Shown piece after piece: positions 3,561 through 51,959 of a stretch of 64,000 nt of DNA. Position 1 is the stretch's first letter. Each line of letters begins with the position of its first letter. Under the pieces are notes generated by a model. The model worked only from the letters and a program-made list of their open reading frames with translations, made no database searches and was not told where the DNA came from. The position numbers and the translations under genes are program-made. Source of the stretch: Narcine bancroftii (Eukaryota); the NCBI RefSeq assembly GCF_036971445.1, contig NC_091469.1, positions 88,784,001-88,848,000 on the forward strand, in the 5' to 3' direction.

Positions 3561-3710
3561 GCACCGAGTTAATTTTTCAGTGTGGCTCAGTAAATTATGT
3601 TATTTTGTATTTTTTTCCAGGAAAAAGAAAGACCTTCTTTGATATTCAGTTGTCAATAGCTAAAAAATGACTATATGTAGTTCAATTTTCAGGCACTCGA
3701 ATGCAGCATT

Positions 3711-5761
3711 CAGGAGGGGCAAAAGGTTTGAGAGAGCCGTGGTTTTCAAGGAATATTGGAAACTTGGTTCGAAGAAAAAGGGAGGCGTACATTAGATATA
3801 AGAAGCATGGAGTTAAGGAGATGTTTGAAAGATACATTGAATGTAAGAGGAATCTTAAGAGAGGAATTAGGAAAGCTAAAAGAAGGTACGAGAAAACTAT
3901 GGCAAGCAGGGTGAAAACTAATCCAAAAGAGTTCTACAAATATGTTAATGGTAAGAGGAAAGCTAGAGACAAAATTGGTCCCTTAGAAAATCAGAGTGGA
4001 AAACTGTGTGTGGAACCTAGAGAAATGGGGGAGATATTGAACAGTTTCTTTTCTTCGGTATTCACTAAGGAGAAGGATATTGGGAGATGTGGGATAAAAA
4101 AAGCAACTTGGGTAAATATGGGGAATATAGAGATTACAAAAGGTGTAGTTTTAAGGCTTTTGAAGAATATAAAGGTGGATAAGTCTCCGGGACCAGACGG
4201 GATCTTCCCCAGGACATTGAGAGAAGTGAAGGAGGAAATAGCAGAGGCTCTGGCGGTAATTTTTCAAATGTCATTAGATATGGGGATAGTGCCGGAGGAT
4301 TGGCGCATTGCACATGTGGTTCCGTTATTTAAAAAGGGTTCAAGGAGGAAGCCTGGCAACTATCGGCCTGTAAGTTTGACGTCTGTGGTAGGTAAATTAA
4401 TGGAGAAAATTCTTAGAGATAGTACTTATAAACATCTGGATAGACAGGGTCTGATCAGGAGCACTCAACATGGATTTGTGGGAGGAAGGTCATGTTTGAC
4501 CAATCTGATTGAATTTTTTGAAGAGGTGACTAGGAATGTGGATGAGGGTAGCGCAGTGGATGTTGTCTATATGGACTTCAGTAAGGCCTTCGATAAGGTA
4601 CCACATGGAAGGTTAGTTAGGAAGGTGCAGTCTTTAGGTATAAATTTTGAGATAGTCAAATGGATTGAACATTGGCTGAAAGGGAGAGGCCAGAGAGTGG
4701 TAGTGGATAATTGTCTGTCAGGTTGGAGGCCGGTGACCAGTGGTGTGCCTCAAGGATCTGTATTGGGCCCATTGTTGTTCGTTATATACATTAATGATCT
4801 AGATGATGGGGTGGTGAATTGGATTAGTAAATATGCAGACGATACTAAGATAGGGTGGAATAGTGGATAATGAAGAAGGTTTTCAAGGATTGCAGAGGGA
4901 TTTGGGCTGCTTAGAAAAGTGGGCTGAAAAATGGCAGATGGAATTTAATGCTGATAAGTGTGAGGTGCTTCATTTTGGTAAGAAGAATCAGAATAGGATA
5001 TATGTGGTAAATGGGAGAGCATTGAGGAATACAGAAGAGCAGAAAGATTTAGGAGTGACGGTACATCGTTCCCTGAAGGTAGAAACTCACGTGAATAGGG
5101 TGGTGAAGAAGGCTTTTAGTATGCTGGCCTTTATCAATCATTGCATGGAATATAGGAGTTGGGAGGTGATGTTGAGATTGTATAAGACGTTGGTGCGGCC
5201 TAATTTGGAGTTCTGTGTGCAGTTCTGGTCGCCTAATTATAGGAAGAATATAAACAGAGTGGAGAGAGTGCAGAGAAGGTTTACCAGAATGTTGCCTGGG
5301 TTTAAGCATCTGGAGTATGGGGAGAGATTGGACAGATTGGGTCTTTATTCTTTGGAGCGTAGAAGGTTGAGAGGGGATTTGATAGAAGTATTTAAGATTA
5401 TGAAAGGGATAGTCAGAATGGATGTGGATAGACTATTTCCGTTAAGAGGAGGAAAGTTTAAAACAAGAGGACATGAGTTAAGAATTAAGGGGCAGAGGTT
5501 TAGAGGTAACATGAGGGGGAACTTCTTTACTCAGAGAGTGGTAGCTGTGTGGAATGATCTTCCGGGAGAAATAGTGGCGGCGGAGTCAATTGTATTATTT
5601 AAGAAAAGGTTGGACAGGTATATGGATGAGAAGAAGATGGAGGGTTATGGGCATTGTGCAGGGAGGTGGGATTAGAAAGGGGTGTTTGGTTCGGTGCGGA
5701 CTAGAAGGGCCTAATGGCCTGTTTCCGTGCTGTAATTGTTATGTTATTATGTTATTATGTT
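3711..5761 (+). mobile_element. CR1 LINE, 5'-truncated and young; RT ORF2 split by one frameshift near 4853
   Basis: ORFs 3701-4870 and 4863-5675 carry [46 protein letters not shown] and ERRRLRGDLIE. The element has a (TTATG)n 3' tail and an AGCATT TSD at 3705-3710 and 5762-5767. Confidence 0.95.
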
Positions 5762-6018
5762 AGCATTGGAAAATGTGGTAAAAGCGGATCCCATGATAAT
5801 CCTTTTCAAAAATTGGATAAAGAGTTGGGGAAAATTCTACTATCTTTGGAAAGAACCAGCATTGGGTTCCCTTGCTCAGTTCTTGACACTGAAATTCCAG
5901 TCAAGATTTTCAGCTCAAGACTTTCAGGTAGATTTAATTTATACTTATTCGGCATGTGAGTGTCCCTAGAGAATGTTTAATCACAATCTGGAATAGGTCA
6001 TTGCAGTGTTAAGGGTCA

Positions 6019-6600
6019 TGTTACCTCTCCAGTGAGAACCAAGTCAGAAGCCTCCACATCTGTCAATCAAATTCAGCACCTCCCATGCTGAGCAGTAGCA
6101 CTCACCTTGCAATTGGCCTTTTCAACAATCCACACTGGTTGCCATTGGCTCTATTAATCATCTAGCCTGGCCCCACTGACTAACAGAGGAGTATAAAGCC
6201 CAACACATGGAACCGCTGGGTTTCTTTTCCCCAAGGAATGAACCCAGCTCCACACCACGTCACAAGCCAGAGTGGATGCTGGAGAATCGATATCAAGGTG
6301 TGCGCCAGTAAAGGGTGCGGGACTTTGTGGTGCACACTGATTAACCATCATCGTACAGTGCATATTTTTCCTTATTTAGTTTTGGTGCCATACCTGCGCT
6401 AGTTTGAGGGGTGGTGGGTACTATTGTTCCATCTATATCTATTTTCTAGTTATTGCTTGTTTAGTTGCATCCGATATTTTATGTACTCTGTGAGAGTATG
6501 TGAATGAATGTGATTCCTTGTGGTGAATTTACTTTGCAGACAAATAAAGATTGTTTGGACTCATTGCTTCTCAGACCTGTTGAACATTCCTCACATAACA
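6019..6600 (+). mobile_element. Solo LTR (Gypsy/BEL/ERV-type)
   Basis: TGTTA...TAACA termini, 4-bp flanks GTCA/GTCC, TATAAA at ~6192 and AATAAA at 6543-6548. Confidence 0.7.
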
Positions 6601-7465: not shown

Positions 7466-9054
7466 GTTGGCCCACAATTTCTGCCCATCACCTGAGTTAC
7501 GCCATATTTTAATCAAGTGCAATTCACACCAATGTTTTTTTTTCTGAAAAGTTGCACAACTCTTATTTCAGTGACCATCCTTATTCTTCAGAGAGTCAGG
7601 TTTCTCCAGGAGGCATGTAAACATTTTAAAAAATACCTTTATTGCTGAAGCTAATGATATAACACACACAAAAATGAATTCTTTCTGATCCAATTCCTTG
7701 GACTTGGCTGAAACCTTAAACTGGCCATCTCTCTCAAAACCTGATCCAGCCTTTCCAATACTTGCTCAAGATCATCAGACCAAAATATTGCATCGAATAT
7801 AGATGCTACCTGACCTGTTATGTATTTCCACTATTTCTTATTCTTAAATGGATGATCTGCAGTTTTGGTAAAATCTTTTAATCCAGTATGAGCATATTTA
7901 AAACTGTTGATCTTCCGGCATTTTCCTTGCTCATTCATATGGAATGTTAGCTGGGGGCTTCAGAGTGTAAATGGCATGCAATGCCAGAGTGCACCTAAAG
8001 TCCGGGCCGGGCTTTAGAACACAAAGGGTCAGGAACAAGGCGAAGCTTGGGGTCAATAGGATTTAATGCCTGTACGTTTTCCGCTGACTTTATACTCAAC
8101 AGGTTGACTGATTACGCTACTCATCAAAAATATTGCACATAAAATGTAGGGTAACATATTAAAAGTGAAATAAAAATGTTGGGACATTTTTGAGAACAAC
8201 ATTCTGGAAAGTGTGTCAGTCCAGAGGATGCCAGGTTATCAGAGTTTTAATGCATTTGACTTCAGTATGCAATTGCAAGGTGCAGATGAACATCACAAAT
8301 CCCAATTTCATCTTTGGTTATATTCTGAAAGTTAAAACTCTTTATATTCCTTCAAAGTAACATTAGCCAATGGAAACCTTGGTAATGTAGCACCAGCTGA
8401 AAGAGTGTTATTGTAAAATTGTCATTTAATAGAGAAGCAAACACTCAATTAGTAGCAGCAAAATTGATGTAGCTTGTGTCATTATAGATGTGCCCTTAGT
8501 TCAGCAAGTGTTGATGTTTCATATTGATTTGAACATGTAATACAGAGATGGTGCCTTTGCGATTGGCATCTAAAAATGTATCAATTAGGTAATGTCACAT
8601 TATATAAACTCAAAATCAGACAGGAGTCTGCCAGGGAGAAAATACGAGGCAAAAACCATGTTCCTGTGGAATATAAAAAGCTTGAAGCCATCCTTGGATT
8701 ATTGATATGCAATTCATGTTTGCTGTACCTTTCCAGTTACCACTTGTATCTTCATCTCCAGCTTTCTTTTCAGCAACTCTGGTTCACAATTTTAAATGAC
8801 AGCTCTGCAGGAAATCACCACCCTCCTGTTCTCCTTGGACATTTTGGATTTGTGCAGTACAGTGAGGAGGCACAGGACACACCTTGGGTTGGATGCCATT
8901 TTGAGATTGGACTCAGCAATGAGTCCAGCAACAGCTCCAGGAGTTGGATGCACTTTGCTTCTTGCCCATCTTTGGGATCAGAACCAAAGTGTATCCAGCC
9001 CCTGAGCTTATTTCGAGGCAACTGTGGGTAGAGTATTCATTGAAGACCCATTTA

Positions 9055-11285: not shown

Positions 11286-11752
11286 CAATCAAAACTGTTG
11301 CTTCATTCATAGTTGAAGCCCATTGGAGTAATATTCTGAAAGCCATGATCAGCAAGGTTGTAGTGACACACCACAGGTGGGGTAAAGTGTTGGGAAATGG
11401 GGGTAGTGAGCTTAAACCAAGAACTGATCTTAACGGCATAGAGGAACTGCCAGGTAGAAAGTTTGATTGTTTATAGCTGACCGACAAGGTCCTCTCAGTT
11501 TTAACCTCACAGAGGATGACTCCTACTTTGTAGCTGAGCCTGTTGGAGGAACTCAGCAGGTCAGGCAGAATTCATGTGTAGCAATGGTCAGCCAACGTTT
11601 CAGGTCAGGACCATTCACAAGAGTTTGTTGTCATTCGCTAAAGATTTCAGCATTTGCAACAGAGCATCTTACGTCTTCACTTTTCACAAGCTTCTTTTCT
11701 CTCCTCCCCAGTTCTGATGGAGAGGTTTGGATGTGAACTATTTATAGTCTGA

Positions 11753-13265
11753 TTCTATTACCTAGTGTCGCTGAGAATATTCTCCCAGAATCACAGTGCG
11801 GCTTTCGCGCAAACAGAGGAACCACTGACATGGTCTTTGCCCTCAGACAGCTCCAAGAAAAGTGCAGAGAACAAAACAAAGGACTCTACATCACCTTTGT
11901 TGACCTCACCAAAGCCTTCGACACCGTGAGCAGGAAAGGGCTTTGGCAAATACTAGAGCGCATCGGATGTCCCCCAAAGTTCCTCAACATGATTATCCAA
12001 CTGCACGAAAACCAACAAGGTCGGGTCAGATACAGCAATGAGCTCTCTGAACCCTTCTCCATTAACAATGGCGTGAAGCAAGGATGTGTTCTCGCACCAA
12101 CCCTCTTTTCAATCTTCTTCAGCATGATGCTGAACCAAGCCATGAAAGACCCCAACAATGAAGACGCTGTTTACATCCGGTACCGCACGGATGGCAGTCT
12201 CTTCAATCTGAGGCGCCTGCAAGCTCACACCAAGACACAAGAGAAACTTGTCCGTGAACTACTCTTTGCAGATGATGCCGCTTTAGTTGCCCATTCAGAG
12301 CCAGCTCTTCAGCGCTTGACGTCCTGCTTTGCGGAAACTGCCAAAATGTTTGGCCTGGAAGTCAGCCTGAAGAAAACTGAGGTCCTCCATCAGCCAGCTC
12401 CCCACCATGACTACCAGCCCCCCCACATCTCCATCGGGCACACAAAACTCAAAACGGTCAACCAGTTTACCTATCTCGGCTGCACCATTTCATCAGATGC
12501 AAGGATCGACAATGAGATAGACAACAGACTCGCCAAGGCAAATAGCGCCTTTGGAAGACTACACAAAAGAGTCTGGAAAAACAACCAACTGAAAAACCTC
12601 ACAAAGATAAGCGTATACAGAGCCGTTGTCATACCCACACTCCTGTTCGGCTCCGAATCATGGGTCCTCTACCGGCACCACCTACGGCTCCTAGAACGCT
12701 TCCACCAGCGTTGTCTCCGCTCCATCCTCAACATCCATTGGAGCGCTCACACCCCTAACGTCGAGGTACTCGAGATGGCAGAGGTCGACAGCATCGAGTC
12801 CACGCTGCTGAAGATTCAGCTGCGCTGGATGGGTCACGTCTCCAGAATGGAGGACCATCGCCTTCCCAAGATCGTATTATATGGCGAGCTCTCCACTGGC
12901 CACCGTGACAGAGGTGCACCAAAGAAAAGGTACAAGGACTGCCTAAAGAAATCTCTTGGTGCCTGCCACATTGACCACCGCCAGTGGGCTGATAACGCCT
13001 CAAACCGTGCATCTTGGCGCCTCACAGTTTGGCGGGCAGCAGCCTCCTTTGAAGAAGACCGCAGAGCCCACCTCACTGACAAAAGGCAAAGGAGGAAAAA
13101 CCCAACACCCAACCCCAACCAACCAATTTTCCCTTGCAACCGCTGCAATCGTGTCTGCCTGTCCCGCATCGGACTGGTCAGCCACAAACGAGCCTGCAGC
13201 TGACGTGGACTTTTTACCCCCTCCATAAATCTTCGTCCGCGAAGCCAAGCCAAAGAAAAAAAAAG
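11753..13265 (+). mobile_element. RTE-clade LINE, 5'-truncated, with an intact 457-aa RT/C-terminal ORF (11830-13203)
   Basis: FVDLTKAFDTV, GVKQGCVLAP, LFADD and a C-terminal CNRC...H zinc-finger-like motif; AAAG tail; 13-bp TSD ATTTATAGTCTGA at 11740-11752 and 13266-13278. Confidence 0.97.
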
Positions 13266-13349
13266 ATTTATAGTCTGACCTGCTTTGTTTGATTTTATTT
13301 TAATTTCCAGCATCTGCAGTTGTTTGATTTTCCTCAACTTTTGACGCAT

Positions 13350-21175: not shown

Positions 21176-21696
21176 AGTTGGCAAGGTACTGCCTAATGAA
21201 GTATGATGCTTGAATATGTGGAAGTGTTCACTTTGGCAGGATTTTTTTTTTTAAAAAAAGCACAGCAGCTGAAGAACAGAGCTCTGAGTTGCAGAAAAAT
21301 CTATGTGACCTCGTGAATGATTCACAAAATTTTCTTTAATGAATGTTATCAGTTATTCTGCGGGCAACTGATGAGAACATAAGGGAATGAAAATCAAAAT
21401 AAGGAACTACAGGTGCAGAAAACCTGAAAGGTTAACAGTTTCACTTTCCAAGCCTGATGAGTTCTTCCAGCATTTTCTGGTTTTGTTAACAAAGGAGGAA
21501 GTTATGGCCCAAATCTCTGTCAGAAAATGTGAGACTGAATCAGGTGCACAAACTGCACTGATCTCCTTATTTAAGGAAAGAAGCAAACTAATTGGAAGCA
21601 ATTCTGAAAATGCTTACTGCACTCTTACCAGCAGAATATGGGGGCTTTGAAGATCCTAGATCTGATCTATTGGTTGTGAGATTGTTTAGCACTATT

Positions 21697-22807
21697 CTTT
21701 GGCTTGGCTTCGCGGACGAAGATTTATGGAGGGGGTAAAAAGTCCACGTCAGCTGCAGGCTCGTTTGTGGCTGACAAGTCCGATGCGGGACAGGCAGACA
21801 CGATTGCAGCGGTTGCAGGGGAAAATTGGTTGGTTGGGGTTGGGTGTTGGGTTTTTCCTCCTTTGCCTTTTGTCAGTGAGGTGGGCTCTGCGGTCTTCTT
21901 CAAAGGAGGTTGCTGCCCGCCAAACTGTGAGGCGCCAAGATGCACGGTTTGAGGCGTTATCAGCCCACTGGCGGTGGTCAATGTGGCAGGCACCAAGAGA
22001 TTTCTTTAGGCAGTCCTTGTACCTTTTCTTTGGTGCACCTCTGTCATGGTGGCCAGTGGAGAGCTCGCCATATAACACGATCTTGGGAAGGCGATGGTCC
22101 TCCATTCTGGAGACGTGACCCATCCAGCGCAGCTGGATCTTCAGCAGCGTGGACTCGATGCTGTCGACCTCTGCCATCTCGAGTACTTCGACGTTAGGGA
22201 TGTAAGCGCTCCAATGGATGTTGCGGATGGAGTGGAGACAACGCTGGTGGAAGCGTTCTAGGAGCCGTAGGTGGTGCCAGTAGAGGACCCATGATTCGGA
22301 GCCGAACAGGAGTGTGGGTATGACAACGGCTCTGTATACGCTTATCTTTGTGAGGTTTTTCAGTTGGTTGTTTTTCCAGACTCTTTTGTGTAGTCTTCCA
22401 AAGGCGCTATTTGCCTTGGCGAGTCTGTTGTCTATCACATTGTCGATCCTTGCATCTGATGAAATGGTGCAGCCGAGATAGGTAAACTGGTTGACCGTTT
22501 TGAGTTTTGTGTGCCCGATGGAGATGTGGGGGGGCTGGTAATCATGGTGGGGAGCTGGCTGATGGAGGACCTCAGTTTTCTTCAGGCTGACTTCCAGGCC
22601 AAACATTTTGGCAGTTTCTGCAAAGCAGGACGTCAAGCGCTGAAGAGCTGGCTCTGAATGGGCAACTAAAGCGGCATCGTCTGCAAAGAGTAGTTCACGG
22701 ACAAGTTTCTCTTGTGTCTTGGTGTGAGCTTGCAGGCGCCTCAGATTGAAGAGACTGCCATCCGTGCGGTACCGGATGTAAACAGCGTCTTCATTGTTGG
22801 GGTCTTT
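21697..22807 (-). mobile_element. RTE LINE, 5'-truncated, open RT C-terminal ORF
   Basis: ORF 21749-22864 is nearly identical to 11830-13203 from KDPNNEDAVY onward; 8-bp TSD GCACTATT at 21689-21696 and 22813-22820. Confidence 0.96.
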
Positions 22808-23148
22808 TACATGCACTATTACATGCTCAATTAACATGCAAATAGACGTGTCCTGTTGATTCACCAGGTTGATTCCTCAGTCTAGTCTATGCGTGAGGTT
22901 GCTCCTGTCATGCCTTCCTGCATTCAGCACTTGACCAGGGTTGACTGAATGACCATTCCAAATTCTTTTCATCACAAGGTACAGTGTAAACCTTATATTC
23001 AAGGCAAGGACCCAGTAGAGGACACATGTCATTAAATTAAAACAGAAAATGCTGTGCATTTCCAGTATTATTCCAAAATTTCTGGCATCTGTAATACTTT
23101 GCATTCTGACTATGCTTGGTGAGATGGGTTACACATGATGTTGGCAAG

Positions 23149-50135: not shown

Positions 50136-50699
50136 TTTCTATTGTCATGTCCTTATTTCAGCCAATACTTGAATTCAGTCTATGGTTATGTAAAACAGAT
50201 AACAACTTGCACTGATGTGGAATCTTTTCAGGTTGTTCAGAAATATCTCAAAGTGCTTCGCACAAAAATATATCACTTTAAAAGTGCAACAATAAGATGC
50301 ATATGGAAATGAGTCATTGTTTACTCAACCACAAGAAGCAAACAGAAAAACAATCTCTATTGGATAGTGTTTATTCACAAAACCACAGTAGCCCAAAAGA
50401 TTACTGCAGAGAGTGATGCAATTATACACATCCAGTACAATTTTATCAATGCACAGCCTGCTTCTAGAAATAGAACTGCTATTTTGCACAATTTAAAAGA
50501 TGCACATTTTTTTTCAGTCACACATCTGCTGCTCTATGTTGGATTCAGCTGCAGAAGTAGTTTTTAAACAAAGGGTTAAGACCTGCTTCCTCAGTGTATC
50601 ACGTAGCCTCCTGGCTTGGCCGGATACCAAAGAGTTGTGCAGCAAAGGATAGAAAATGATGCGTTTGATCTTCACACTATGAGAGACCACCCCTATCTT

Positions 50700-51858
50700 T
50701 TTTTTTAAATTTTTCACACTATGAACCATACTGACCAAAATACACACAAACATTTCCCTCTTGAATATACACAGTGTTATTTTGTCCCCGTTTCCCCCCT
50801 CCCTTCCCTCCCTCCCCTCCCCACCCACTCAACGTTTAACATATATGATACATTAAACAATGTCATCACACAATGAAAATAAACAAGAAATTTGTGTCTT
50901 CTACTTTTACATATTGGGTCAGTTCATTTCGTCTTCTCCTCCTTCTGTCATTTTAGGTGGTGGAGGTCCGCGGTAGGACTTCTCTGTTGTGTTCCATGTA
51001 CGGTTCCCAAATTTGTTTGAATACTGTGATGTTATTTCTTAAATTATATGTTATTTTTTCCAATGGAATACATTTATTCATTTCTATGTACTATTGCTGT
51101 ATTCTCAGACTATCTTCTAATTTCCAGGTTGACATAATACATTTTTTTGCTACAGCTAAGGCTATCATAATAAATATTTTTTGTGCTCCATCCTTTCACA
51201 ATAATCTTTCCTTTAGAGAATGGGAGAGAAAAAGGATCAAAAGAATAGAAAATTGTTTTTCGGGAAATAAATTATTATCTTTTGAACAAATGAAGGACAA
51301 ATATGGTATAACTCACAGGACAATGTTTGCATACCACCAACTGAAAACCTACTTGAAGGACAAATTGGGAAGCAGGCTGAGGTTACCAGAAGGAAGCAGC
51401 TTTGAATATGTGATTACAGACACAATGATAATTAAAAGATTTATAACAAATATGTACATCAAACTGCAAGAGAAAGAGAATGAGGAAACAAGCTGTAAAC
51501 CCAAACAAAAATGGGAACAAGATCTAAACATAAAGATAAAGAATGAAACATGGGAAAAGCTATGCTCCGGATACTATGAGAAATACAATAAACACGAGGT
51601 TACGCATGATACAATATAATTGGTTACACAGGCTATACACCATGCCCCAAAGGTTAAATAAATGGGACCCAACAGTATCAGACAGATATTTTCGCTGTAA
51701 GAAGGAAATGGGAACAACAGTACATGCAATTTGGGCACGTGAGAAAGTGGAAAAATTTTGGGAAGATCTAAACCAGGTATTAAATAAAATCACAAAAAGC
51801 AACATACCAAAAAATCCAGAGATCTTTCTTCTAAGTAATATAAGAAGTAAAGAACTTG
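50700..51858 (-). mobile_element. L1 LINE insertion, 5'-truncated and 5'-inverted
   Basis: 15-bp TSD GACCACCCCTATCTT (50685-50699 and 51859-51873). Segment 50700-51193 on minus holds the ORF2 end DGAQKIFIMIALAVAKKCIMSTWK...WEPYM..., the 3' UTR and poly(A). Segment ~51190-51858 on plus holds the preceding ORF2 part, ending NPEIFLLSNIRSKELG. Confidence 0.92.
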
Positions 51859-51959
51859 GACCACCCCTATCTTGAAGTCTGTACCCACTCTTACTGATGT
51901 CCTGTCTTAGAAAGGTTTTCTGGATTTTTACTGCTTCCTGCTATTCAAAAGCAAACTAG

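Follow-up and report, generated by a model that had tools for sequence, protein, structure and literature searches.

The stretch of DNA analyzed here, hereafter the window, comprises 64,000 nucleotides of Narcine bancroftii and raises a mechanistic question at positions 50685..51873: How did two L1 pieces come to lie on opposite strands between the two copies of a single target-site duplication (TSD)? The earlier note on this locus had proposed twin priming, a model that reportedly goes back to Ostertag and Kazazian 2001. We are confident that the locus is one dead L1 insertion whose front part was inverted within a single 15-bp TSD, likely by twin priming, and whose geometry is common to 25/98 sister copies.

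The 15-mer constituting the TSD matches the window at exactly two positions, even if up to two mismatches are allowed (chance mean 0.09), and its exact copies bracket two opposite-strand L1 pieces of one family. The following features were assigned:

50685..50699: TSD, copy on the tail side (3' end of the element); exact 15-mer, terminal TT assignable equally to the tail
50700..50714, minus strand: A-rich tail with a TTT interruption, as in most copies of the L1 family
50715..50952, minus strand: L1 3' UTR with a G-rich tract, aligned to the 3' end of the full-length copy L127
50953..51193, minus strand: non-inverted piece, carrying the C-terminus of ORF2 (DGAQ through family stop; tblastn against P0001 aa 1187-1252, E 8e-19)
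51192..51193: inversion (inner) junction with the 2-nt microhomology CC
51192..51858, plus strand: inverted piece, ORF2 stretch immediately upstream of the non-inverted piece, with one frameshift (tblastn against P0001)
51859..51873: TSD, copy at the 5' end of the element; its leading GAC is also the L1 sequence after ELG (3-nt priming microhomology)
60572..60958, minus strand: astrotactin-2 exon, aa 146-274, the sole exon found in the window

The minus-strand piece extends as a whole over 50700-51193 with its DGAQ start at 51192, and the IRSKELG end of the plus-strand piece adjoins the distal TSD. The parts named in the earlier note are confirmed, including the ORF2 terminus, the G-rich tract (50786-50830) and an A-rich tail; a portion of this A/T tail is common to the family. 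On a reference based on L127 the inverted piece corresponds to 4864-5539 and the non-inverted piece to 5547-6074; against the fish-type ORF2 protein P0001 (tblastn), the plus-strand piece reaches aa 1179 and the minus-strand piece covers aa 1187-1252. The stop codon TAA at 50953-50955 is that of the family (A in 70/72 and 71/72 aligned copies). The copy is dead, with a premature stop in the minus-strand piece at 51091-51093, where most copies read TGG, and a frame change in the plus-strand piece near 51566-51572. Two nucleotides past the TSD, a flanking 12-mer (50671..50682, minus strand) is identical to the element's 3' end at 50713-50724; a search for it in 99 loci yielded one other locus that reached 10/12. 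The 12-mer could stem from a previous mini-insertion, without a tail, at this nick.

The astrotactin-2 exon is 98-99% identical to its counterparts in rays and a sawfish, 97% to those of sharks and 90% to that of Callorhinchus; by this exon, the host is an elasmobranch, likely a ray. As no other exon turned up in the window, the insertion probably lies in an intron, oriented in the sense direction of the gene. The open frames beside the TSD were considered as a possible exon and rejected, as they have neither a Pfam hit nor an astrotactin-2 match. For the insertion taken by itself, no function is apparent.

Full-length sister copies of the element measure ~6.0 kb. With sister copies L078 and L077 as queries, the APE endonuclease (EN; E 6.5e-31) and the reverse transcriptase (RT) region (E 1.3e-61, vs 6.5e-16 for R2) have human L1 ORF2p as their best PDB match. 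The RT region is moreover 41-56% identical to ORF2 proteins of 1250-1280 aa, of which the named ones are mostly teleost. ORF1 resembles L1 ORF1 weakly: Transposase_22 was hit at E 0.016, below the cut-off, and human ORF1p was the top PDB hit, also at E 0.016; in other family copies no L1-type ORF1 was hit at E 0.01. A TSD of 12-18 nt flanks 5/7 full-length copies, which carry an A-rich tail. With EN and RT closest to L1, an A-rich tail and a long TSD, the family probably belongs to the L1 clade (L1 or possibly Tx1). The family resembles fish L1-clade retrotransposons in the identity of its ORF2 RT, its ~6.0 kb length and its A-rich tail, and differs from them in the G-rich 3' UTR tract; such tracts in L1 are, according to passages of PMC5381506, mostly known from mammals.

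How often the family shows this geometry was determined in sister copies that were selected by their 3' end only. The 45-mer at the 3' end of the family has 924 exact matches in the genome, and the first 100 by position on one contig (C1, 2.8-271 Mb) were each read over 8.2 kb upstream. Leaving aside the window copy and one further copy (read in L060), which is also inverted, 98 copies were classified: 25 are 5'-inverted, 66 truncated and 7 full length, an inverted share of 25.5% (Wilson 95% interval 18-35%) that applies to one subfamily, picked by identity to the 3' end of this insertion, on one contig. Another 29 loci, picked by likeness to the inverted piece, were kept out of this rate, and inversions shorter than 25 nt were not counted. 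Among the 22 truncated copies with a TSD there is one candidate for an 8-nt micro-inversion, L082: the 8 extra bases at its 5' junction (~7670-7677, element orientation) match inverted L1 13 nt upstream (11-nt match), and 25% is therefore possibly an undercount. When the sample is confined to copies with a TSD of at least 10 nt (A/T-only matches removed), 19/46 are inverted, which does not differ significantly (P=0.15) from the 639/2068 TSD-flanked L1 copies of human and chimpanzee, with 30.9% given for human, in the passages of PMC2912911 used here. This suggests that twin priming is likely about as frequent in Narcine bancroftii L1 as in human L1.

The TSDs bear directly on whether the inversion belongs to the insertion event. 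A TSD of at least 10 nt abuts the 5' end in 19/25 inverted vs 22/66 truncated copies (P=3.5e-4), a score that 7/297 mismatched flank pairs reach in the control; low complexity marks two or three of these 19 TSDs, and 6/25 inverted copies have no TSD above the threshold. This adjacency largely refutes the alternative that an ordinary 5'-truncated L1 was inverted afterwards by DNA repair or recombination, since one breakpoint would have had to hit the edge of the TSD exactly, both at the locus and in the 19/25 inverted copies. Moreover, the breakpoints at the locus carry no inverted repeat. What a later inversion would account for is the repair-like appearance of the inner junctions: 13/25 carry extra bases (1-2 nt only in 9, at least 6 nt in 4), and some of these are apparently templated. 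In L080 and L114, the 16 and 41 extra bases are partly copied from nearby antisense L1, which looks like templated end joining; the extras of 1-2 nt are possibly later mutations. In the family, L121 has its TSD together with a 71-nt inverted piece twice in tandem, and L002 shows a local inversion within an L1 copy, an independent event with a breakpoint ~60 nt from that of the window insertion. A later inversion should also have struck other retrotransposons of the same genome, yet none of 58 CR1-type copies shows it, and we consider this alternative very improbable.

The comparison with other elements rests on the two further RT-bearing families of the window (RVT_1), which we take to be CR1-type and RTE-type from their protein and tail motifs. 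Both were sampled as L1 was, on shorter stretches of contig C1 (51 Mb and 5 Mb) and with shorter upstream views. For the CR1-type family, the 5' end was out of view in 12 of 70 loci, none of the remaining 58 is inverted, and no TSD of 10 nt was found. L226, a head-to-head pair of 5'-truncated CR1-type copies, was rejected as an inverted copy because it carries its own 3' end and counts as two copies (1/58 if it were included). For the RTE-type family, 3 of 70 loci were out of view and 4/67 are inverted, while a long TSD is present in 25/67; the length of the overhang is thus not sufficient for inversion. The inversion rate of L1 differs from that of the CR1-type (P=5e-6) and of the RTE-type family (P=0.001), and the latter two do not differ significantly from each other (P=0.12). 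In the window itself, the CR1-type LINE lies at 3671-5760 and ends in a TTATG-repeat tail (3' 41-mer: 5,306 exact matches), and RTE-type copies lie at 11737-13268 and 21686-22876; the 3'-end 38-mer of the RTE-type family has 64,879 exact genome matches, indicating a recent expansion on a very large scale.

That twin priming operates in this fish lineage, as the earlier note had proposed from the one locus, is well supported by the predictions borne out at the locus and by the 25/98 inverted sister copies. The junctions of the inverted L1 copies give a more differentiated picture. The two breakpoints lie at most 50 nt apart in 20/25 inverted copies and at most 10 nt apart in 9/25, and in three copies 480-590 nt are missing between the pieces. 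At the outer junction, a microhomology of at least 2 nt is present in 7/19 copies vs 8.4% at random (P=6e-4), and one of at least 1 nt in 11/19 vs 29% at random (P=0.008); for the latter, the difference from truncated copies (6/21, one more unresolved) is not significant (P=0.11). The inner junction is not enriched, with at least 1 nt in 7/25 copies vs 45% in simulated blunt joints, which were generated without divergence. Divergence may account for part of the weak microhomology and of the extra bases.

At the locus itself, the relation between the two pieces was resolved by colinear copies, for which the animal's own genome (3.33 Gb) was searched; 40 of 7148 candidates were scored. In these copies both pieces stand in line, 10 nt apart, and read ...ELG-GAC-TCGATTT-GGATGG..., which makes the inverted and the non-inverted piece neighbours on one RNA. 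The gap of 10 nt opens with GAC, the start of the distal TSD; consequently, 3 nt are common to target and L1 and 7 nt were lost, and the loss between the pieces at insertion amounts to 7-10 nt. The earlier note had predicted that ELG and DGAQ would prove close on the element and that both junctions would show microhomology, and this is borne out by GAC (3 nt) at the outer and CC (2 nt) at the inner junction. Furthermore, the two pieces deviate from the family majority in 17/671 and 11/462 columns (2.5% and 2.4%; median of 67 family copies: 3.2%): they are equally old and of one subfamily.

These observations weigh against a head-to-head landing of two L1 copies, whether inserted independently or made from two RNAs during a single event. 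The family is abundant, and head-to-head pairs do occur, as the CR1-type pair described above illustrates; the plus-strand piece, however, has neither a tail nor a TSD of its own, and the two pieces are equally diverged and separated by 7-10 nt when mapped to the family. Such an origin is less probable still than a later inversion, two RNAs of the same family in a single event being a remote possibility. An assembly error at this repeat is no more credible than a double insertion, since, even if none of the short-read contig records listed bridges the inner junction at 51192-51193, such contigs match both outer junctions without differences and the 25 other copies have different breakpoints. 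One contig (50100-50724) runs from unique flank through the tail-side TSD into the tail and another (51832-52300) crosses the distal TSD with 27 nt of plus-strand L1, both with zero differences, in runs that may derive from the assembled individual itself. Because the right flank is joined to plus-strand L1 and the left flank to the minus-strand tail, the opposite orientations are fixed. The left flank is single-copy, which argues against a paralogue. An empty allele was not found, as no skip joint occurs among the records listed for the short reads of one organism; the short reads of two further organisms contain the L1 family and do not cover the insertion flanks at 85% likeness.

Twin priming would produce this end product by the following steps, which we infer from the published model as given in passages of PMC2912911 and PMC4245944. 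The endonuclease would nick the target at TCTT/GA; the TT end thus released would prime a first cDNA on the tail of the RNA. A second nick, 15 nt away, would then free an overhang ending in GTC. Base-paired to GAC within that RNA, this overhang could prime a second cDNA. The first cDNA would halt at DGAQ and the second would extend for ~670 nt, before end joining unites both cDNA ends via CC. The nick site is the one given in the earlier note, which had regarded it as a variant of the L1 consensus TTTT/AA; rather than deviating, TCTT/GA fits the commonest nick site of this family. Across 47 TSD-bounded copies (window included), the commonest site is TC|AA (16/47), with TT|AA in 6/47; T is favoured at -2, C at -4 and C at -1 (25/44 non-A, P=8e-5), a position that the method biases against A.

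The mechanism is known and the lineage new, and a rate can now be given for it. That L1 of an elasmobranch is inverted about as often as human L1 argues for a great age of two L1 properties, the second-strand nick and internal priming. This rate, together with the contrast between clades, is the part worth following. Hundreds of natural events become available, on which L1, RTE and CR1 can be compared within a single host. For repeat annotation it implies a warning, as about a quarter of these L1 copies show up as two opposite-strand fragments. We tentatively propose, at slightly less than an even chance, that frequent twin priming is ancestral to jawed-vertebrate L1 and not a mammalian peculiarity: elasmobranch L1 is inverted as often as human L1, the frequency of inversion in a single host goes with the clade of the element (L1 26%, RTE-type 6%, CR1-type 0%) and the cDNAs are joined with little microhomology, although one family in one genome does not separate ancestry from convergence.

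A passage of PMC4476161 presents the model as one proposed for the L1 copies of mammals. No paper on inverted L1 in cartilaginous fish was among the literature matches listed, and the passages of PMC5389967, PMC6007223, PMC13174262, PMC4476161 and PMC5381506 contain no such report; nor did the literature searched yield a report on 5' inversions of fish L1, the zebrafish L1 integration studies, and with them possible earlier reports, lying outside that search. A close experimental system is that of PMC4245944, with LINEs inserted into chicken DT40 and into HeLa cells, in the available passages of which inversions are almost confined to human L1 in human cells, the exception being one zebrafish Nimb-2 insert in DT40. 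5' inversion is proposed there to need L1 features plus human-type host factors; in contrast, a non-mammalian host and element give inversions often here. The model of the same passages, in which second priming needs a long overhang, fits L1 (long TSD, 25/98) vs the CR1-type family (no long TSD, 0/58).

The features of the family match those given for twin priming in passages of PMC2912911, PMC4245944 and PMC11702581. Like human twin-primed L1, the elasmobranch copies combine the inverted geometry with a TSD of 10-20 bp, close breakpoints with a short deletion or duplication and microhomology at the 5' junction; inversion is likewise linked to a long TSD and occurs at a similar frequency. They differ in a weaker outer microhomology (at least 1 nt in 11/19 vs 577/605 human junctions in the passages of PMC2912911; 71% of human junctions have at least 2 bp in those of PMC11702581), in the lack of enrichment at the inner junction, in wider breakpoint offsets (9/25 within 10 nt) and in a nick that falls mostly at TC|AA and not at TT|AA.
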